DNA from: Amoebidium appalachense
Taxonomy: Eukaryota; Protista; Ichthyosporea
Direction: 5' to 3'
Assembly: GCA_963693365.1 (NCBI GenBank)
Contig: CAVNZM010000002.1
Location: 3,922,259 to 3,986,258 of the forward strand
Length of the DNA stretch: 64,000 nt
The notes below the pieces were generated by a model, which had not been told where the DNA came from, made no database searches, and saw only the letters and a list, made by a program, of their open reading frames with translations. How positions within the stretch are numbered: the first letter of the stretch is position 1; each line of letters opens with the position of its first letter. Made by a program: the position numbers and the translations under genes. This document shows positions 28-52,522 of the stretch, one piece after another.

Positions 28-311
28 ACCACGCAGTCTGCATTGAGTGTGAGCCTCTTTAGGGTCAGGATTGAGTTATAGGGTACCCACTAGCAGTATC
101 CATACTATAATCTTAATTTTAACACTAAAGATTAACGCATAAAACACAGTCTGCGTTGAGTGTGAGCCTCTTTAGGCTGAGGATTGAGTTGTAGGGTTGC
201 ACTAGCAGCATCCATACTATAATTTTAATTTTAACACTAAAGAATAACACATACCACACAGTCTGCGTTGAGTGTGAGCCTCTTTAGGGTGAGGATTGAG
301 TTGTAGGGCTG
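28..311. repeat. ~116-bp tandem repeat (~2.4 copies) inside the gamma-tubulin intron
   Basis: The unit cagtctgc(a/g)ttgagtgtgagcctctttagg..gaggattgagtt..cactagcag.atccatactataat recurs at ~35, ~147 and ~259. Confidence 0.85.
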
Positions 312-775
312 CACGACAATGTCGCTGCTCTCCTCCTGGTTGGGAAACACACTGTACGTCTGCACCAGCTGTTTTTTTGTTTTGTTTTTTTGTTTTTTTT
401 TTGTTTTTGTTTTTTTTGGGGGGGGGGGGGGGGGGGGGGAGGGGGGGGGGGGGGGGGGGAGGGGGGGATGTTAGTATGGGTGAATTTAGTACCTTTAAAC
501 GCCAAATGTTGTAGTGTGAGCATGGAATTTATGAAAATGTTAGACGGAACGAAGTACCAATCTATTATTAGCTAATTACATTAGATACACATAAAACAAA
601 TAAATGCATACAAAGGGCCAAAAAAAAAAAAAAAAACTAAAAGGCCATGCAAAGGGTATGCCAGGGGGGGGGGGGGGGGGGGGGGGGGGGAAGGGAAAGG
701 AATGTAACAAAAGTGTCGCCCATTCTCAAGCTGGGGGCAAATCAGCCCAGAGGGGGAGGGGGAGGGGGGACTTGC

Positions 776-4648
<3,873 letters not shown>

Positions 4649-5107: not shown

Positions 5108-5933
5108 TTTTTTTCCTTTCGGCAACTCGGAGTTGTCGTCGCGATCGGCTCGGAGTGTGCTATGTTCTCCCTAGTTACACATTCAAGCATATTGATTGGT
5201 TTAGGCTTATCGTGCGCGCGATCAGTAATCACCCTGGATCCTCGCCTGTAGGCTAAGTTGAACACCCGACATGTCACGGCCCTCTTTCAGAGGGCCGTGG
5301 ACATGTGCACGGAAAAAAAATCTGCACAAGTGCATGCATTCCGAGAAAATCTAGTCGCTATTCAATAAATAGCTACAATATTGCAAATTTAGAGGGGCTA
5401 TCCTCAGTACATGGAGACGCAATATCTTTATGGTGGACATGGTGAGGTCCGGCTTCGGGGGCCAGATGCTCAGCGATCGCGGTGCGATCGGTCCGATCTA
5501 CTCTATCAGTCTCCTGGATCGTATCCTGTGACCTGTTTGTCCGCCGGCCCTGTAGCCTGGCAGGCCGCGAGCCGCACATGCACTCTTAGCACAAGAAAAG
5601 TTAGAGTTGAAAAAAAAAGATCCCATAAAGACAATATTTGAATGCTTTTGTAGTTCTTTTTTGTATCGCTTTATGTTGTAAGCATCCTGTTAATATTGCC
5701 AGCTGATGAGATCTTGAGAAGCTCGCGCCGCGTGGCTCGCGACTGCGTCATCACTCTGTTCTGGTTGGATAATGTTTTTGCCAGTGCGGTCACACGTGTC
5801 GGCCGAGTCAAAAAGCGCACTCGCTTTTCTTTTTGTTCCACACCAAGTTCTTTGTTTTCACGTTCTCTCTTCTGGTCTGTTGTACCAGAAGTTATAGGTA
5901 GCTTGTCACGTTTAGGGGAAGTATAGGGAGAGA
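4649..5933. promoter_or_regulatory. Divergent intergenic region between gamma-tubulin and Tom20-SET, with a central 17-bp palindrome (5269-5306)
   Basis: The two ATGs are head-to-head ~1.29 kb apart and the region is nearly free of CA/G-run repeats. It contains ACATGTCACGGCCCTCT-TTC-AGAGGGCCGTG(G)ACATGT. Confidence 0.5.
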
Positions 5934-8725
5934 ATGAGCAACAACAAGGGTATTGTTTACGGTGTGGGTGCCGTTGCGGCACTGGTGAGCGCCTTCTTGG
6001 TGCTCGACTATGTTCGCAGGTCCGACCCGACGTACAAGGACAAGATCAAGCAACGTAGGTACCCTGCTTGTCCAGAATTCAAGGAGATTGAACGGCGGTT
6101 TTTGCGCAAAACAGGGTGCATGTTACAGCGGTTATGGAGCAACGAAGGGGATGCCGGGCGTCAATATAGTATGAGTGGAAGTGTGACATCCCGAGGTTTT
6201 TGGGTGGTTGGTTTTTAGAGTGACACGAGCTCGGTACATTCTTCTCATCTTCCTTTCAATCTTTCAACTACCTCTAACATAGATTTCCCTTTTTATTTCC
6301 CACATTCGACCACCACACACCCCTCTCCCTTTCTCTTTCCCCATCCTCTCCCTGCCCAATCCCCCACCAACCGTTCCCCTTCTGCTCTTGCACCTCGCCC
6401 CCCCCCCCCCCTCGCCCTCCCCGCCTTCCTCTTCTCTTATCCCCCCTCCTCCCTTTCCTCTCCCCTCCCATCTTCCCCTCTTTCTGCCCCCCCTTTTCCT
6501 TCTTCCCCGCCCCCCCCTTTCCCCTTCGCTCTTCCCCCTCCCCCTTCCCCCACTAGGCCGTAAGCAGTCCAAGGCCGAGGCAGCGTCCAAGCGCAACTCG
6601 CAGGCGCAGGTAGCCGAGCAGGCCATGGCCCAGCAGGCCGAACAGGCGGAGCTGGCGGCCAAGCAGAAGCTGCTGACCCAGGAGCTGGAGCAGGGCCAGC
6701 TGGCCCTGGTGCAGAGTACGTGTGTGTGCGTGTGTGGGGGGGGGAGGGGGGGTGAGGGGTGTGCGCACGTCCGTGCGTGCTTGCAAAATGTGTGTGTGCA
6801 TGCGTGGGTGGGTGTTTTGTGTGTGTGAGTGGATGGGTGTGTTGTGTGTGTGTGTGTGTATGTCTGTGCATGTGGGTTGGTGTTTTTGTGCATGTGGGTG
6901 GGTGGGTGGATGTGCTGATGGGTGGGCTTGTGTTATCAGGGGGGCCGTGGGGGGAGGGAGGGGGGCGGAAGGGGAGGCACAGGCAGAGGGGTTCGGGGGG
7001 AGGAGTGGGTGGGTAGGTGGGTAAGTTTGTGTGGGTCTGGGTGTGAGTGTGGGGGGGGGGGGTCTGTTCGTGTATGTGAATTTTTTTGAGGTTTTATTTG
7101 GTTTTTTTTTTTTGGGGGGGGGGGGGGGGGGCCAGCTGTGTGGTAGTCGTGATGTCTGGCAGAGTTCAGCAGTGAGCTTGGATATGGGGAGGGGGGGGGG
7201 GGCGGGGGGCTGAAAAGATAAAGGTGTGGTGAAGCTTTCGATGAATGGTGCCTCAGGGTTGTGCACAGGCTAGAGGGGGGAGGGGGGAGGGAGGATGCAG
7301 ATACCTGAAGAACATTTGTAGGACATGCCGATTGACAATAGGTGACACGGGTGTAAATAACGCAAACGGCGAGAAGGAGCAGTGGGAAGGGGGGGGGGTG
7401 GCGCCGGGGGGGGGGGGGGGGGGGGGGCTGATCACGGAAGTCACGGAACATGTGGCTTGTGAATGAAGGGGTTGCCCGTTATTTGGCACGCCCAATGTGT
7501 ACATACACATGTGAATGCCTTTTTTCATGAAATTCGTTGCCCCCCTCCCCCCCCCCCCCAAAAAAAAAAAAAAAAAAAAAAAAAAAGCCTTCCGGGTGGT
7601 TCATGTTGTAATGAGGTTGTTGAATCTTTTTCATCTCGACAGGGGATTTCGAGAAGGCCGCGCTCCACTTTGCCAATGCCGTGAAGGCCAGCGACAGCCC
7701 CATGGACATTGCTCTCTTCCTCAAGCAGAACCTGGAGCCCCAGGTGTTCGAGCTCATGATGAAGAACCTGGACCCCGAGGTGTGTTTTTTTAGTTTTTAC
7801 TGTTAATTTTTTACTTTTCTGTGGTTTAACTTTGGGAGGGGGGGGGGGGGATGGCTCTGGAAAGTGCGGAATCTCAATCGTTGGTTTGTCTCTTCATGTG
7901 TGTGTGTGTGTATGTGTGTGTGTGTGAAGAGGGGGGGGGGGGGGGGGGGATGAATAAGTGGTGAGCATGATTCCACGCTAGTGGAGGTGTGTGTTTGGTG
8001 CAGGGGGAGGGAAGAGGGGGGGGGGGGGAGGGAGGAAAGAGGGGGGTTATTACGGTTGGGTCCAAACTTGGTGTTCGGTGCCCGAGGAATGCACAGGATG
8101 CACTCGCGTTACACGTGTACGTGGAGGCATCAACAGCCAGACACGCAGACCCGTGCACATATATATCCATAAACACATGTGCGAGGCATGCGACACTTGC
8201 ATACACGCACACATGCAGGCTTCACACACATGATTTTGCAGTGGGTTTGACGTCATAAGGACATATATGAACCAAACAGCGCATCCACCCACTCGCTTTC
8301 ACGAGATCATTTGCCCATGCTGACATACGGGTTACACAATATGTTTTTATTTATCATAAATGTTGCTACATCAATCTTTCATTCAACTAATGAAGTGCTG
8401 CGTGTGCTCCAGGTGTTCCGTGACAAGTACTTCGACAAGTTCCCTGGTGAGGCGTCTGGTATGGTGATCAAGGTGTGTGGTTGCTTATTCCCCCCCCCCC
8501 CCCCCGTCACGCACACACACACACACACACACTCTCTCTCTCTCTCTCTCTCCCCCCCCCCCCCCCTATCTCTGTGCACCCCCCTCTCTAGTCACCGGAG
8601 TCATTATCAACTCCTCTCTCAGACAGGTGTCTTGTAGGTGTATATCTACGGATGATATGTGTGTGCGTACTTGATGGTGGCTGTGTGAGCCGGTGGGCTT
8701 GTGCTCTTGTGCCCTCACACGTGTA

Positions 8726-8765
<40 letters not shown>

Positions 8766-9381
8766 CAGACTCAGACTCAGACTCTCCATGTGCGCCGACC
8801 TCTTCTGTTACCGTGTGTATATGTTCCACATGTATACACACGCACTCAGACATACACACTCGTACAACCTCTCACGAGTCCGTATTCCGAGGGAGAAAGG
8901 GAGGAGAAGGATAGTGGTGTGTGCCTCCCCCCTAGGGGAGTGTATGTTTGGGGGGCTGGGGTAGGGGAAGCTTCAGGAGGAAGGCTGATGTGAACACAAG
9001 AATTTTAGACGCAAAGGGCAGGTGTGCGTGTACGTGTGTGTGTGTGTGTAGTGTGTAGTGTGCATGTGCCCATGTATGTTTAGTGCACCAGTGTTTTTTT
9101 TTTTTTGAGGGGGGGGAGGGGGCAGTAATGTAACACTATGGCACATCCCACAGAACGTGGAGCAGGCAGACAAGCAGCGCGCCGTCTTTGCCCTGCGTGA
9201 CTTTGCGGAGGGAGAGGAGATCACATCAGAGCTGCCCTTCGCAAGCTCCCTGCGCCCCACAGTCATGGTATTGCATCCCTCCCCCCCCCCCTCCCCCCCC
9301 CCCAATCTGACACACACACACTCTCTCTCTCTCTCTTTCTCTTTCTCTCTCTCTCTCTCTCTCTCCCCCCCCCCCCCCCCC

Positions 9382-9412
<31 letters not shown>

Positions 9413-9995
9413 ACTGCATATTATTTGCGTGTATGTACGTTTAACATATGTCCCTCGCACTCAAACCGTTTGACACTCCCCCCCTCCCCCCTCCCCCTCG
9501 CCTTTCCCACCCTCCCTCCTACACCTTCACATGAATTGACAACCTTCCGGGATATATTCCTTTCAGCAGTAGTCGTATGTAAGCCATTGCAGTAACGACT
9601 TAATTGCGTTGAGGGAGCTTCACCAAGTTCTGCCTCCTTCACCACCCCTCCCCACCCCCAGCTCCCCCCAGGGGGGATTCGTTTTCACCATCACGAATCA
9701 GCCAATATCGCTTTATAAGAAGTGCAAACCTCTTTTATGATCGATATTCACGTTTTCGTTTTCTCTTTTCCTTTTTTCTCTTTTAGGACGGTAGCCACTG
9801 TGCGCGCTGCTTCTGCAAGGTGACGGGCAACCCCGTCCCCGCCACCACCATGGCTGGAGAGTCATACTGCTCCGAAACCTGCCGTGGTATGTCTCTCTTC
9901 CCCTCCCCCCCCCCCCTCCCCCCCCCCCCCCCCCCCCAACCAACCAACCAACCACCACCAGAAGGGACCCAGTGTAGATGTATGAGCTGTTAGTT

Positions 9996-10027
<32 letters not shown>

Positions 10028-11020
10028 CATCTCCCTTCCCCCTAACAGCCACAAAACAGGCATCCCTTCCCCCTTGTTGCCACCTTCCAATGTTAGAATA
10101 TACAGAAACATACTGATGTCCACATGAATTGTGTTTCCACCTTCTCTCGCCCGCTTCGTATTGTTGGTGTGCCAAGCTTAATCTGACCCCCCTCCCCCCG
10201 CCGCCCCTCGATATATACATACAAATACATGCCGAACGCGCCCACACACGTTCATGTACACCTGCACATGCGCTCGTGCAGACATACACTTTGCACATAC
10301 AATACACGTACATACACACACACAAATTCGCACACGTGCACACGCACACACTTACCCACACTCATGAACCACACGTCCACACACACACACACGTGCACAC
10401 GAACACACGCTTACACACACACATCTACACGTACACATCCACACGTACATACACACACACACAGACGCGGCCAACGAGGAGTACTACGGCAAGTTTGGGG
10501 ATGCCGATGCCTGGGCGCAGATTGTTGCACTTGCGGCCGAGCAGGGGCGCACTGAGCCCTTCATGGTGGCCAAGCTGCTGGCCAGGGTCTTCAGCACTAG
10601 GCTGGCCGACAGCACCGCAGACATTGCTCACCTGCACTTCGTGTACGTGCCTCTCGCACTCATGCTTGGATGGATCGGGGGGGGGGGGGGGGGGGGGGGG
10701 GGAGGGAGTGCGGCAGATACTGTGCACCTGCATTTTGTGTATGCCTGTGTGTGGGTTATGAAAGGGTGGGGGGAGGAAGGGGGGGGGGGGGGGGGGAGTG
10801 TTCTGTACAACTGGCTGATAGCACCTTAGACACATCTGAACTTGGTGTATGTGTACCCCTGTGTGTGTTTGTGGTGTGTGTGTGGAGGGGGGGGGGGGGG
10901 GGCTTGTCACGGCAGACATTGCCCTCACGTTGTGTACATGTCTGTCTGGGTAAGTGGGTGGGTGGGTGGGCGGATACGGGCTGGGGGAAAGTGTGGGTGG
11001 GGTGGTTATGTGGGGGAGAT

Positions 11021-11051
<31 letters not shown>

Positions 11052-12057
11052 CTAGTGACGGTGGGCATGCGTGTTGGCAGGAGTTTTTTGAATAGAGCAA
11101 TTTTGATACTTTGAAATGCTGTGTGCCTGAGACAAAACTGTTTGCACACGCCTATTGGTACTGTTTGCACACACTCTTTAGTCTGTTGCACACACTATTG
11201 GTACTGATTGCACACATTCTTTGGTCTGTTGCACACACTATTGGTACTGATTGCACACGACTTGTACAGGGAGCCTCTGCCCACGATGACACCTGTGATG
11301 AGGCAGGAGTCTGAACTGCTTAAAAGGGTCATCAAGATCGAATCCATCGAACAGCGTACGTGGGTGTGGGTAAGGGTGGGTGTATGTGTGGGTGGGGATG
11401 GGGGTGGGTGTATGTGGTTGCACGTGTGTGGGTGGGTGGGTGGGTGAAAAGGTTTACGCGTGTGTATGTGTACTTGTGTGGGTGGGTGGGTGTTGTGTGG
11501 GTGTATATACGTGTATGCACGTGTGTGGGTGTATATGTACGTGTGTGGGTGCGGTGTTTTGGGGGAGGTGGGGGGAGGGGGGAGGGATGGTGTGTGCGTA
11601 TGGGTGTGTGTGTGTGTGTGTGTATGGTGTGTGCATGTTTACGTGTATGTGCATTCGTCCACATGTCGTGTCGTGTGTCTATGTTGGTGTGCTGCAGGCG
11701 TTTGCCTTGTGAGTGGATGAGCAGATGCGATGCACATGCTGGCTATAGCAGAGGCGTGTATGTGATCGTGATGTGCGGGGGTGTGAGTACCTGTGTGCGG
11801 GGGGTGCGGGGGAGCGGAGGAGGGGGGGGGGGGGAGGGGAGGATGCATCCGGTGTTCGAACATTTAGGAACATAGTGCTGACGTGTGTTTTTGTGTAGTG
11901 GTGAACGATGAGAGCTACACGGCCATGGTGGGCAAGGTCAACACAAACGAGATCCCAGTGGTCGTCGACGGCCAGGTACTGCCTGCACACGGTTTTTTCT
12001 TTTGTTTTGTTTTGTTTTTCCCTCCCTCCCTGTTGAAAAATGTACTCCGTACACGCA

Positions 12058-12100
<43 letters not shown>

Positions 12101-12170
12101 GCTACCCCTTGCCCTTGCACACTTGTAACCACCCGTCGTCGAAGCTGTCACCTTGTTGCTCTTTCCTTCT

Positions 12171-12201
<31 letters not shown>

Positions 12202-12213
12202 CTCTCTCCTCCC

Positions 12214-12273
<60 letters not shown>

Positions 12274-12693
12274 CAGTATCTGAGGTGGGATATCGTTGAC
12301 GAGGTGAATGGTAGAAACTCGGGTGTTGTTGATAGCTTGAGCCCCCACCTTGAAGATTGGCTCTGCTTATTATGCATACTCTTCGTGTGTACTTGCACTC
12401 TGCATTGTGTTGTCCGTCATGAATATGTGCTTAGTGTTCTATAATGTGATTGTGTACCTTCATTTTCTGTAACACACTCTACCCTCCTCTCCCCCCCCCC
12501 CCCCCCCCCCCCCGCCCCCCTCCCCCCTCCCCAAACAGCGCGTTGCAGATGCCGTGTACCTGATTGGCTCGTACTTCAACCACTCGTGTGAGCCCAACAT
12601 GAAGCTGGTATTCAACGCCGGCAACCACAAGGTCTCATATGTGGCCACAAAGTATGAAACCTTCCCCCCCCCCCCCCCCCCCTCCCCCTTCGC

Positions 12694-12749
<56 letters not shown>

Positions 12750-13012
12750 TGTGTGTGTGTAAGGAAAGGGGACATGCAGATGCAAACGATTGTGGTCTCG
12801 GTGTTAGGGTTGGGGTGTGGTTGGGTGCATAGTTTGTGTGTGTGCATGTGTTCCTGTGCATATGTGTGTGTGTGGACTAAGGTTGCGGGCATTGTGTTTA
12901 TGTGCATGCCTGCCAGCATGTGTACATGTGTGGGTGGGCTACATGTGTTTGCACGCACATTGCATGCTTACACCAGCACACACACAAACTTATACCACTC
13001 ACACCCACACAT

Positions 13013-13047
<35 letters not shown>

Positions 13048-13438
13048 TACAGATGTGATATGTTGACATCATGTGCATGCAGCACAAAACAAACAGTAGG
13101 CAAATAAAAAGATGAGAGAGATCCACATACAATCAGAATGATTCATTAATTTCAGAATCAGGGGCTATCAATGAATGCAATGAGCGAGTGTTCACGTAAA
13201 AACGAGCAAAGTGGAAGTGGTCAAATGGATACAAAATAATAACTTTCAATATGATAGAATTTTCCATTTATTTTTTGGGTCATTACTGACATTTTGAAAT
13301 TTTAAAATCAGGGCCATTAAGAAGGGGGATGAGATCATGCGCACGTACATCGATCTTGAGGGCAAGGACGCGACACAGCGCAAGGCCGAGCTGCAGTCCC
13401 GCTACAAGTTCACCTGCGACTGCCCCCAGTGCAAGTAA
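5934..13438 (+). CDS. TOM20: Tom20 (MAS20) mitochondrial import receptor fused to a SMYD-type SET/post-SET methyltransferase domain, 423 aa
   Basis: Exons 5934-6054, 6557-6715, 7643-7779, 8413-8472, 9154-9267, 9787-9886, 10465-10642, 11270-11355, 11899-11975, 12539-12651 and 13312-13438 total 1272 nt, all GT-AG, one frame. The N-terminal TM anchor is followed by DYVRRSDPTYKDKIKQRR, QELEQGQLALVQRDFEKAALHFANAV and LKQNLEPQVFELMM (Tom20). Then come VFALRDFAEGEEI, CARC..YCSETC, YFNHSCEPN, IKKGDEIMRTY and FTCDCPQC (SET/MYND-like/post-SET). Confidence 0.9.
11140..11260. repeat. ~44-bp tandem repeat (~3 copies) just upstream of acceptor 11269
   Basis: The unit tgttgcacacactattggtactgattgcacac recurs. 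Confidence 0.8.
12407..12432 (+). repeat. Copy of the dispersed intronic element (Tom20-SET intron 9)
   Basis: GTGTTGTCCGTCATGAATATGTGCTT. Confidence 0.75.
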
Positions 13439-14126
13439 ATTTTAAATTATAAATTTGAAACTTTGTTTTGGTGGGGACTTGTCGTTGGTTGTTCCGGCTT
13501 GCTCGGCTGGTTATAGGTTATGTGTGGATTTGGGTGATGGTGTTTCTTGAATGTTTTCTCTCGCTACAGTTATATCTATTCTGTAGGGGGGAATGTTTTT
13601 GGTGGGTTGAAGGTTCACTTGAAGCAATTACTTTAGCGTGGAGTGTGGAAGTAGGGGGCCACTCGGCGCAGTGTATAGATGCTTATATCCTAGGCCTGAG
13701 CAAAAAAGAAAACTACATGCGAGCTGGCATTATGGCCGGTTACGTCTTATGTATCAGCCAGCACCCACCTTTCGGTTTCATGCTCTACACCCTTGCACAC
13801 TTTTTTTTTTTGTTTTACATGGCACTTGCCAAAGGGCGTACACGATAACAATACACTTTCTGTTATCGTTTACCATATGTGCATGGTGTGTTTACCCGCA
13901 CGCACAAAACACTAAATGCAGTTTTTGACACTTAGACCTGCTCATTTATGCATCTTGGCTTCTTGGTGGGTGATGCAGGCTGTGCCTGCGCTGTGATTTC
14001 ACCGACCAGTCTCCAACTAAACATTCATTGCACAAATCAACATTCAAATAAACCTTGCCTGCACCAATCGAAGGGGGTGAGAGTAATTACAAAGACATCC
14101 CCCCCCCCCTCCCCCCCCCCCCCCCC

Positions 14127-16307: not shown

Positions 16308-17123
16308 GTGTGCGTGTGTGCATGTGTGTGTGCGGGCGCGTGCGCGTGCGGGCGCGCGTGTGTGAACGCGCATGTGTTCATGAGCGTGCATGTGCAGGCA
16401 TGCCCATGTATGCGGATGTGGGTATGCCAGCACAAGATGTCAGCCATGTGTTACAATGTGTCTGCGTTAATCCGTGTAGGATTAAAATCCATAGTCTTGA
16501 GTCGTAGCAGTCACAAATAAGAGTTGTACGTTGAGATTGGTGCGCGTGTGCACTGGTGTGTGTATGTGTTTCGTGTGTGTGTGCATGTTCGTATGTGTGG
16601 CAACACCCTCCCACAACAAAAGCAAAGCAATCGTGCAGACAGGGGACACTCGGACAAAAGCCATCATCGTTGGCCGCGAGAAAGGGAAGGGAAGGCGGCC
16701 GGGGGAGGGGGGGGGGGGGGGGGGGGGGGGGGTCTGAGAACCTTTCCGATGGCCTTTGTTCTTCCGTCCCTGAACACGAGCCTCATGCCAAGGTTAAGAT
16801 GCTCCGGTCTCTGCATGAAGTGAAGGCGCACACGACACCGGTCACCTGTCCGCATGTTTTCCTGGTCCATGCTCACAATACGCGCCTGAAATTTGGGATA
16901 GATGTGAGATAGACATCGGATTTGTAAACAGCAGGCGGTTTGAATGTTTTTTTTTTCCCTTTCTTTCTTTATATATATATATATATATATATATATTTTT
17001 TGGGGGGGGGGGGGGGGGAGGGGGATGATGCATTTTTTTTTTTTTTTTTTTCACTTTCTTTTATATTTTACTTTTTGTTTTTTGTTACGATTTTTTGGTG
17101 GTGGTGGAGGTGGGTGGGTGGGT

Positions 17124-17179
<56 letters not shown>

Positions 17180-18110
17180 CCGTCTGCCTGACAGATCCGC
17201 AGTGGACCATGGCCTGGTAGTTTAGGGTGATGAGTGTAGGGTGATGCAGCACCAGAAGGTCCACGTCGTATTCGATGCAGGGCCGGGGCTCTACGTCCTT
17301 GCCCAGAAGCACCATGCCCTATATTGGATAGACGGGGGTATACCGTGAGAAAAACCGAAATTTTAAAGGGCAAAAATATGGAGAGAAAGCAAGAGCAGAA
17401 GAAAAAGTTGCTCAAAAGCCTGGGTGAATGAATAAAGGGGAGATAAATACTGTGCGATGTTGAAACCGAGATACGCATGGTGATGTTATGTATCTACATG
17501 AAGGGGTGAAGTCTTTGCACCATACTACTAGGTGAGTGAAGAGAGGGGAGATACACGGTCGGAAATACTTGAAATTCACAGGGTAACAGTAACGATTTGC
17601 AGAAATACCGAGGGGTGGGAGGGGGTGGGGGCTGAGCTTGTTCCACACAGCACACCGCACATATGAAGTTTAAAGGCAAGGGATGCATAAAGAACACACG
17701 GGTCAATATGCAATACTGATGTGTGTGTGTGTGTGCGGGTGTGTGCATGTGTCTGTGTGTGCATGTCCATGTGTTATAAGAAGATTCGGGAGAAGACCAA
17801 GAGGGGGAGAAACCGAGATGGGAATAGAGGGATAGAGATAGTGAGAGAGACGAGTGAAGGGGAAGGGAGAGAGAGACAGAGAGGGAGGGAGGGAGAGAGT
17901 GTGTGTGGGTGGGTTGGGGGGGGGGGGGGGGGGGGGGGGGGGAGGGCGGGGAGTGAGAGAGTGTGTGTGAGAGGGAGGGATGAGAAATTGAAGTTTCACC
18001 TTGCGAATTTGATTGCGTTTAATCTTTTTGAGGGCAAAGCAGGCCGACTGGCCAGCACGTAGCTCATCAACCGGTAATCGACGTCGGTGGATGCTCTTGA
18101 TGGACACGGG

Positions 18111-18142
<32 letters not shown>

Positions 18143-18236
18143 TGTGTCTGTATGTGTGTGTGTGTGTGTGGTGTGTGTGTGTGTGGTGCGTGTCGTCCGT
18201 GTGTGCGCGTGTGTGCGTGTGGGCGTGTGCGCGTGC

Positions 18237-18271
<35 letters not shown>

Positions 18272-18283
18272 TGTGGGTTTGAG

Positions 18284-18321
<38 letters not shown>

Positions 18322-18818
18322 GGGACGAGGGGAGAGGGGGGGGCGGGGGGAGGAGGGGGAGGGACGCGAAGGGGCATGCATTAGTTGGTGGCAAGCATGA
18401 AAGCTAAGGCATTGAAGAAACCGCGAAAATGGAACAACCAACACAAACACAAAAACCAAAGCGATTGCGCGACAGAAGACCCTTGACCAAAGCCGTGTGT
18501 GTCTCTGTGTGTCTGTGCCTATGTGTGTGTATGAGTGTGAGTGTGTGGTGAGTGTGTGTGTGGGTAGGGGGGCGGGGGGAAGGGGGAGGGGAGGGGGGGG
18601 AGGGGGAGGGGGGTCAACATTACCTCGAAGTGTCCCGACCAATCAGGACCCAGCTGCAGTGTGTCGTTGACTTTCACAATGCCCCCAAGCAGAGTCCCAA
18701 ACACAACAGTGCCCACACCCTGATTGATTGGTTAGATATCATGCAAGTTGATATTTGAAGTGGGTTTTGGTTGGTGGATATTTGATGAGTGCTTTGACAT
18801 GGGAGCTTATATCCTCTT

Positions 18819-18849
<31 letters not shown>

Positions 18850-18962
18850 TCCTCCCCTGCACCCCCTCCCCATTCCCCCCCAAAAAAGAAGAAAGAAAGA
18901 CGCGAAAAAAAAGAAAGGAAAACCACCCACTTCTTGTGTGTACACATGCACATCCAAACGTG

Positions 18963-18993
<31 letters not shown>

Positions 18994-19255
18994 AAAGAAA
19001 AAGAAAAAAAAAGAAAGAAAAAAAGATGACACAGTCGCTAACCCCACATCATGACAAATTTACTGGAGATCCCCCCCCCCCCCCTCCCCCCTTGGTGGTG
19101 GTGGTGGTGGTGGTGAGGGGTGGGTGGGTGGGTGGGTGGGGGGGGGGGCAGAACAAAAAAACAAAAATGCGACGACACCGGAGAAGGGTGACGAGGAAAG
19201 ATGTGTCAGCATGTGTATGTTTGTTTTTAGGTGTATAGGTTTTTTTTTTTTTTTT

Positions 19256-19287
<32 letters not shown>

Positions 19288-19447
19288 TGGTCTCATACCG
19301 GCACGGTGTAAATTTCGCCGATGTGGAACTCTATGGGGTCGTCCACAGAAAATTTCTTGAGGGAGGGGGGTGCAACAGATTCAGGAACATTTTCACCAGG
19401 TCGAGGTTCAGACCACTGACATTGGAGATCTGGAAGATGGGGCACAG

Positions 19448-19494
<47 letters not shown>

Positions 19495-35675: not shown

Positions 35676-52522
<16,847 letters not shown>

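Follow-up and report, generated by a model that had tools for sequence, protein, structure and literature searches.

Tom20 is known from yeast, Neurospora and mammals as a short mitochondrial import receptor. A locus of the ichthyosporean Amoebidium appalachense raises the question of why such a receptor should carry a SMYD-type lysine methyltransferase in the same reading frame. The stretch of DNA analyzed, called the window below, covers 64,000 nucleotides (contig CAVNZM010000002.1 of assembly GCA_963693365.1, forward strand, positions 3,922,259 to 3,986,258), and the Tom20-SET gene lies at 5934-13438 of it. An earlier interpretation made from the letters alone (the sequence-only reading) had proposed a single in-frame fusion over 11 GT-AG exons. 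The fusion is real and transcribed. Its best reading, which we hold with about even confidence on the basis of sequence comparison, is an active lysine methyltransferase anchored at the outer-membrane translocase (TOM), with activity, location and substrate all predicted.

Gene Model and Transcript

The gene comprised 11 exons on the plus strand with all 10 introns of the GT-AG type, and its 423-aa frame had the terminal stop as its sole stop. The exon GC content at third codon positions was 0.69-0.92. The proposed fusion was borne out by contigs of two sequencing runs, X1 and X2. Record 5 of X2, a spliced contig of 1,897 nt with a span of 5930-14059, ran from the Tom20 exons through the 3' untranslated region (UTR), and record 1 of X1 ran from exon 1 into exon 6. 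The latter crossed the junctions 7779/8413 and 8472/9154, which the sequence-only reading had named for checking, and each junction was found inside single contigs of both runs. Moreover, X1 showed a loose end of 22 A at 14067, 20 nt past the AATAAA at 14047. The two runs were from a single sample of a single study, and their RNA nature was only guessed, yet the contigs skipped the introns. In addition, a search with exon 3 found the 423-aa EukProt protein P0001, which was identical to the translation of the gene model, although it may share source material with X1 and X2 and is not independent of them; among longer proteins, P0001 was the sole return of this search among 9 candidates. As a control, all 10 introns were found again by a spliced aligner whose sole query was the protein of Ichthyophonus.

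An annotation artefact, or two adjoining genes, was ruled out because single contigs of two runs spliced through the junction and the fusion recurred in other species. The transcript continued into the SET exons instead of ending after the Tom20 exons, and the N-terminus matched MAS20; the opposite findings had been named beforehand as grounds for giving up the fusion.

Tom20 Part

The Pfam scan gave MAS20 at residues 12-133 (66.7 bits against a cutoff of 27, E 2.8e-18) and SET (48.8 bits against a cutoff of 22.4, E 1e-12), so that both of the domains suspected earlier exceeded their cutoffs. Human TOM20 (PDB 7vc9_M) aligned to residues 4-136 with E 3.8e-12. Exon 1 (5934..6054, aa 1-40; spliced from 6054 to 6557) encoded a predicted signal-anchor helix at about aa 7-24 (nt 5952-6005), with a hydropathy of 2.13 over residues 7-25, and then a basic segment, D-x-x-R-R-S-D-P, and this helix followed by D-x-x-R-R-x-D-P aligned to human TOM20. 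A basic, Ala-Gln stalk helix and helix 1 of the Tom20 core were found in exon 2 (6557..6715, aa 41-93). Exon 3 (7643..7779, aa 94-139) contained Tom20 core with a MAS20 match of its own (E 1e-5) and the residues predicted to contact SET-I. The Tom20/SET junction corresponded to intron 3 (7780..8412, phase 0), which lay 10 codons past F129 and was spliced in X1 and X2.

SMYD-Type SET Module and Active Site

Exon 4 (8413..8472, aa 140-159) encoded a Y-F-x-x-F-P linker specific to the fused family, in which the Tyr was conserved in 31/31 and the Pro in 30/31 proteins. The SMYD S-sequence followed in exon 5 (9154..9267, aa 160-197) and a half MYND finger (C202/C205 and C225/C229) in exon 6 (9787..9886, aa 198-230). 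SET-I occupied exon 7 (10465..10642, aa 231-289), which held its helices, exon 8 (11270..11355, aa 290-318), whose flanking joints were both present in contigs, and exon 9 (11899..11975, aa 319-344), with a helix carrying predicted Tom20 contacts and N335. The core SET in exon 10 (12539..12651, aa 345-381; SET E 4e-5) had NHSCEPN at nt 12578-12598. The coding part of exon 11 (13312..13438, aa 382-423 and the stop) contained Y394 (nt 13346-13348), Y413/F415 and the post-SET C417/C419/C422, with no C-terminal lobe resembling tetratricopeptide repeats (TPR), and was followed by the 3' UTR (13439..14067; poly(A) site near 14067). A SET domain split by MYND and SET-I, together with a post-SET zinc site, was thus present in the window protein.

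The intact motifs read earlier from the sequence, NHSCEPN (358-364), GDEIxxxY with its tyrosine (387-394) and the post-SET CxCxxC (417-422), were all found. By profile alignment to SMYD2, K17/R19 corresponded to K166/R168, N182 to N335, N206/H207 to N358/H359, Y240 to Y394, Y258/F260 to Y413/F415, and the zinc ligands C209, C262, C264 and C267 to C361, C417, C419 and C422; F415 takes the place of the adenine-stacking Phe. The available parts of PMC4307310 and PMC6054832 give the mapped SMYD2 positions as cofactor and catalytic positions. Departures from SMYD2 were seen as well. SMYD2 K17-G-R19-G20 was matched by K166-Q-R168-A169 (nt 9172-9183), that is, both glycines of the N-terminal GxG were replaced (Q-R-A, 167-169), which the sequence-only reading had overlooked. 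Furthermore, the channel Phe (SMYD2 F184) was Ile337.

The MYND finger had been described as reduced by loss of the middle Cys pair. That loss was present, but the terminal His/Cys pair was gone as well, which left a zinc site of pairs 1 and 3; with two of four ligand pairs missing, the finger was not a complete two-zinc one. All four pairs were kept in Sphaeroforma P0005 and several fungal members, and the loss in the window protein is therefore secondary. According to the accessible part of PMC4307310, the activity of SMYD2 can do without MYND.

Predicted Structure and Contact between the Lobes

The AlphaFold2 model, made with a 52-sequence alignment, reached a mean predicted local distance difference test (pLDDT) score of 92.8 and a predicted template modeling score (pTM) of 0.75. 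A SMYD fold was predicted, as the sequence-only reading had led one to expect: residues 151-423 matched SMYD2/3 with Z 22.2 and a root-mean-square deviation of 2.4-2.8 Å over about 250 residues. SMYD2, SMYD3 and SMYD1 were matched at Z 20-22, and the window protein stopped where their C-terminal lobe starts. A 98-residue N-terminal SET/MYND stretch gave weak metallothionein-type matches only in a PDB search.

The contact between the lobes was modeled as a complex, with residues 60-140 folded against 141-423 in the presence of S-adenosylmethionine (SAM) and zinc. The score was 0.69, compared with 0.10 for the best of 3 controls; the runs agreed in at least 77% of contacts, and the partner pLDDT was at least 84. 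The 0.69 mark was reached by 51/78 solved complexes and 2/108 mismatched pairs, in calibration jobs that differ from the window job, which holds ligands. Predicted contacts joined Tom20 residues 107-137 (centre M114) to SET-I residues 269-328, with P113, M114, A117, L118 and M133 on the Tom20 side. In this prediction, Tom20 helices 3-4 pack against SET-I so that both form a single unit.

The pattern of residues at this interface was consistent with the model. A large hydrophobic residue (V/I/L/M/F/W) was found at position 114 in 43/53 fused proteins (7/8 ichthyosporean-clade, 36/45 fungal-type) and at position 118 likewise in 43/53 (5/8 and 38/45), compared with 1/30 short Tom20s at each position, of which 28/30 form roughly one ascomycete-like group and so represent far fewer than 30 independent cases. 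Human TOM20, with surface Gln104/Gln108 in place of Met114/Leu118, and the short paralog of Chromosphaera (Lys, Ala) had the same non-hydrophobic pattern. Position 116 was hydrophobic across all groups, and 116 and 120 were kept in 8/8 ichthyosporean-clade proteins. Relative to the presequence groove known from rat Tom20, the predicted interface would lie mainly on the opposite face of helix 3.

Distribution of the Fusion

When 1.84 billion representatives were searched with HMMER, 3,556 matches reached E ≤ 0.001, and the best 150 of 3,556 were used. The Tom20 profile matched 57 of 153 proteins, and 53 were aligned as fusions, leaving aside the truncated P0060 and P0091, the short Tom20 P0147 and P0140, a weak TPR match. 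The survey concerned lineages other than animals, choanoflagellates and filastereans. Among the matches listed, the closest named protein was that of Ichthyophonus hoferi (58%); the other named ichthyosporean fusions were from Sphaeroforma arctica, Chromosphaera perkinsii and, as a partial protein, Sphaerothecum destruens, and P0003, P0004 and P0007 grouped with the ichthyosporeans. Ten named fungal fusions were found (Dimargaris, Basidiobolus, Podila, Tieghemiomyces, Ambispora, Racocetra, Polychytrium, Spiromyces, Boothiomyces and Auricularia). Names were looked up for 30 proteins, and 36 of the 46 proteins called fungal-type were assigned through similarity only. The top ESM Atlas matches were clusters of MAS20+SET proteins, in which Mucoromycota (107 members) and Basidiomycota (101) were the most frequent. 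The MAS20+SET proteins of basidiomycetes mentioned in the sequence-only reading do exist, and they occur also in chytrids, Zoopagomycota, Mucoromycota and Glomeromycota. Word-based searches, which were insensitive (4 and 5 matches), returned no additional holozoan lineage.

The fungal fusion is already in print, which had been missed earlier: one sentence of PMC9692433 describes the Group 25 SET genes as having MAS20 upstream of SET, unstudied and absent from Ascomycota, and its Table S1, in the part of the paper available, counts 88 such genes in 229 fungi. The window protein has the same architecture, MAS20 upstream of SET in one protein, and the window fusion is a member of the fungal MAS20-SET group, or resembles it in how it works, as an animal-side variant. 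A literature search judged by titles, which did not cover subscription journals, showed PMC9692433 as the sole paper on the fusion and found no publication on a holozoan member or on the function of MAS20-SET. What is new here, as judged from sequence, is the fusion in ichthyosporeans, on the animal side of the opisthokonts, with conserved active-site residues.

One Origin or Two

The sequence-only reading had considered that the fusion may be ancestral in opisthokonts, which now appears likely from the junction intron, the reciprocal profiles and the common loss of the motif-I Gly. In a metagenome scan, 80 of 167 confirmed Tom20 loci were kept, and the spliced aligner was run on the 22 with a downstream SET signal. 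An intron at position 130 was found in 19 fungal loci, 17 of them distinct. In 17/17 distinct loci a GTRAG donor lay exactly 10 codons past the conserved Phe, which is the start of window intron 3, and the intron phase agreed too; L018 had no 130 intron, yet the same donor was present. No such donor was found in nine short ascomycete-like loci that read cleanly at the site. Window intron 2 (93, phase 1) was common to 19/20 intron-bearing loci tabulated. All fungal loci were basidiomycete-like, and the intron evidence is therefore limited to one fungal phylum. Intron 1 was offset by two codons from its fungal counterpart; near residue 344, the window intron and that of the fungal loci did not coincide.

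For the SET module, the best 9 matches of the ichthyosporean profile were all fungal fusions; in the opposite direction, the fungal profile had ichthyosporean proteins as its best 6. The motif-I Gly was kept in 0/31 fused-family proteins of the tree set, two of them N-terminally truncated predictions, compared with 56/58 unfused SETs. The FastTree of SET modules placed the fused SETs in one clade with support 95. Short fungal Tom20s nested among fused ones.

Several results weigh against a single origin. IQ-TREE with LG+G4 joined the fused SETs in 204/400 bootstrap trees, with p 0.495 in the approximately unbiased (AU) test, and a mixture model joined them in 26% of 200 bootstrap trees. The window gene and the 17 fungal loci had no SET-region intron in common, and an old intron of Tom20 may have served twice as the site of the junction. 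These unjoined or weakly joined SET-only trees and the missing common introns are what separate fungal and ichthyosporean fusions would lead to, each with a SMYD gene spliced onto the same old Tom20 intron. Such a double event would also have to account for the reciprocal best profile matches, the motif-I Gly loss, the Y-[FY]-x-x-F-P linker and the hydrophobic interface positions shared by both groups, and the AU test did not reject one clade of fused SETs; we consider it very improbable. A single origin of the fungal and ichthyosporean fusions is, in our judgment, highly probable. The fusion would have arisen once, before the split of fungi and Holozoa, through an intron at the end of the Tom20 core.

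Short and Long Forms

Read-through past the junction donor in the fungal loci encoded a conserved acidic tail of 42-58 residues, which suggests one gene with two products. Judged from their sequences, basidiomycete-like fungi thus appear capable of producing both forms, the short and the long, with a single gene. At the window locus, read-through of intron 3 gave 8 residues and then a stop, and no acceptor within this intron led to a Tom20-like tail. A short isoform was not seen: no contig of X1 or X2 covered intron 3 at 98% likeness, and contigs drop rare forms. In Chromosphaera, a short Tom20 (P0147) was located on a separate scaffold and branched outside all fused ichthyosporean Tom20 domains (92/77). 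The 8-residue read-through and this separate gene suggest that the window gene is a constitutive fusion. As far as the Chromosphaera sequences alone indicate, ichthyosporeans appear to have a short Tom20 paralog and, separate from it, a copy dedicated to catalysis.

Two side observations were made on these forms. In 16/17 distinct fungal loci the read-through tail, present in the predicted short form only, contained S-S-x-[ED]-W-D-x-[VL]; the 17 loci were L003 (655-820), L001, L005, L016, L024, L027, L040, L046, L047, L050, L062, L065, L067, L070, L071, L077 and L078. This motif resembles the Atg8-interacting motifs of mitophagy receptors, in which serines and acids precede W-x-x-L/I/V. Moreover, L009:702-1139 and L014:4001-4453 were intronless short Tom20 genes that nested among fused fungal proteins with no clear downstream SET; judged from sequence, they possibly lost the SET module recently and separately. 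In L009, positions 114 and 118 are both still hydrophobic.

Source of the SET Module

Among unfused proteins, the ichthyosporean profile was matched best by amoebozoan ones that group with Physcomitrium ATXR4. By a crude rule for presequence-like starts (within the first 25 residues, 2 or more Arg, no more than 1 acidic residue and a net charge of +2 or higher), 15/23 ATXR4-like members qualified, compared with 2/27 other SMYDs; one row without Met was dropped, and a further 5/6 short proteins, chosen post hoc, were kept apart. ATXR4-like SMYD proteins of plants and amoebozoans may be mitochondrial. P0034, P0053, P0054, P0092 and P0101, plant and amoebozoan SMYDs of this type often labelled histone methyltransferases, had presequence-like starts. 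Arabidopsis ATXR4 likewise has a half MYND of pairs 1 and 3, according to the available part of PMC4521844. The accessible part of PMC12699882 lists four SET proteins in a diplonemid mitochondrial proteome, with family detail absent from that part. A literature search that included ATXR4 with mitochondria, AT5G06620 and the Dictyostelium mitochondrial proteome found no publication locating ATXR4. The placement of ATXR4-like proteins as sister to the fused SETs was tried and was unsupported (5/400 bootstrap trees); deep branches were unresolved with the mixture model.

A scenario joining these points can be put forward, which we regard as unlikely. The ancestral Tom20 of animals and fungi would have been a two-lobed receptor-enzyme, derived from an ATXR4-like, matrix-targeted methyltransferase that traded its presequence for Tom20, moved to the entry gate and there methylated its nuclear-encoded substrate, with the precursor lying in the Tom20 groove. 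The lobe would then have been lost in animals and ascomycetes, have become a pseudo-enzyme under alternative splicing in other fungi, and have kept working in ichthyosporeans.

Function

By analogy with Tom20 biology, the protein would be anchored with its N-terminus in and its C-terminus out and would associate with TOM, and the SET lobe is predicted to stand at the cytosolic face of the mitochondrial outer membrane. The Tom20 lobe would stand in for the substrate-gating C-terminal lobe missing from this SMYD, so that the lysine methylated by the enzyme would belong to a protein engaged at the import site. The simplest candidates would be a precursor with a presequence or a factor associated with TOM. 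Conservation in the ichthyosporean clade was in agreement with catalysis: Y394, H359, F415 and all four SET zinc cysteines were kept in 7/7 proteins, down to 28% identity, and N358 in 6/7. Among unfused proteins, N358 was kept in 56/58 and Y394 in 58/58. Among fungal-type proteins, the figures were 3/46 and 28/46. Catalytic residues kept where relatives drop them suggest selection for catalysis; basidiomycete-like fungi would have let catalysis decay while ichthyosporeans kept a catalytic copy.

The fungal figures also argue for a different role, in which the SET module does little or no catalysis and serves Tom20 as an added receptor or scaffold lobe, binding precursors, chaperones or ribosome-associated factors at TOM, its catalytic residues being leftover or structural. 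Most fungal copies lack the SAM-binding Asn (43/46 fungal-type proteins without N358), and a third lack the catalytic Tyr, with Phe or Trp there in 16/46; in the available part of PMC4307310, the Tyr-to-Phe change abolishes the activity of SMYD2 and SMYD3. Most of these proteins retain the zinc cysteines (34-36/46) and the hydrophobic interface. Fungi thus kept the SET domain without catalytic residues, so that the conserved job of the family may not need catalysis, and a non-catalytic role has to be taken seriously as the alternative for the whole family. For the window protein itself, the changed GxG glycines (Q167, A169), of which the first, the motif-I Gly, is lost throughout the family, and Ile337 at the F184 position mean that binding of SAM or lysine may be impaired. 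Moreover, the complex run gave contacts without coordinates, and the orientation of the presequence groove to the active site was outside its output. All these points weigh against an active enzyme. On the other side stand the Tyr, His and Phe kept in 7/7 and the Asn in 6/7 ichthyosporean-clade proteins at 28-59% identity, the C-terminal SET/post-SET as their best conserved region by a small margin (0.39 vs. 0.28-0.38), and K166 and R168, whose counterparts contact SAM with their side chains in SMYD2. A scaffold lobe is the main rival reading for this protein, less likely than an active enzyme. Distinctly unlikely is an active enzyme for which Tom20 is only an address label, with no import role and with a cytosolic or outer-membrane target (e.g., a ribosomal protein or a chaperone) unrelated to translocation. 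The separate short Tom20 of Chromosphaera, which branches outside the fused domains, would fit this, as would the MAS20 scores: 119 bits for that short Tom20 vs. 64 for its fused paralog, and just 45-88 bits for fused ichthyosporean-clade Tom20 domains. Against it, the juxtamembrane D-R-R-x-D-P and the core hydrophobic positions 116 and 120 were kept in 8/8, and a short paralog was seen in Chromosphaera only.

If the fusion is ancestral, the short Tom20s of model organisms would be reduced forms, and the original opisthokont receptor would have borne a SMYD module. The ichthyosporean copies keep catalytic residues that most fungal copies lost, and they are thus the right material for a first assay. 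Activity, if true, would tie lysine methylation to the import of proteins through TOM, and inactivity, if true, would mean that TOM has a receptor lobe of a new kind. Positions 114 and 118 of the predicted interface lend themselves to testing the coupling of the lobes.

Neighbouring Genes

A tubulin gene, presumably gamma-tubulin-like by its motifs, lay at 249-4648 (-); it starts at 4648, and it and the Tom20-SET gene stand head to head about 1.3 kb apart. At 36664-41588 (-) lay exons of a RasGEF gene, with sub-cutoff matches to RasGEF and RasGEF_N. Exon-like frames at 17088-19459 (-) had no Pfam match and are presumably related to the translational GTPase GTP-binding protein 1/2.

Comparison with Known Systems

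Compared with canonical Tom20, the window protein agrees in its hydrophobic helix at the N-terminus, in the D-x-x-R-R-S-D-P segment and in the helical core, and has a 284-residue SMYD module in place of the short C-terminal tail. With SMYD2 and SMYD3 it shares about 20% identity, the split SET with its MYND and SET-I insert, the post-SET zinc site and the cofactor residues; unlike them, it has an N-terminal membrane anchor, half a MYND, QRA for GxG and Ile at the F184 position, and it lacks the C-terminal TPR-like lobe. The standalone ATXR4-like SMYDs found in plants, algae and amoebozoans (Physcomitrium ATXR4, Cavenderia, Acanthamoeba, Phalansterium) are likewise short and without that lobe, but they have no Tom20, keep the motif-I Gly and in 15/23 cases begin with an Arg-rich, acid-free, presequence-like stretch. 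The closest system is the fungal MAS20-SET group, which has the same architecture, fusion point, linker motif, junction donor position, lost motif-I Gly and hydrophobic 114/118. The window gene differs from it in being non-fungal, in its read-through tail of 8 aa instead of 42-58 aa, in its half MYND without a C-terminal extension, and in keeping N358, Y394 and F415, which are often lost in the fungal copies.

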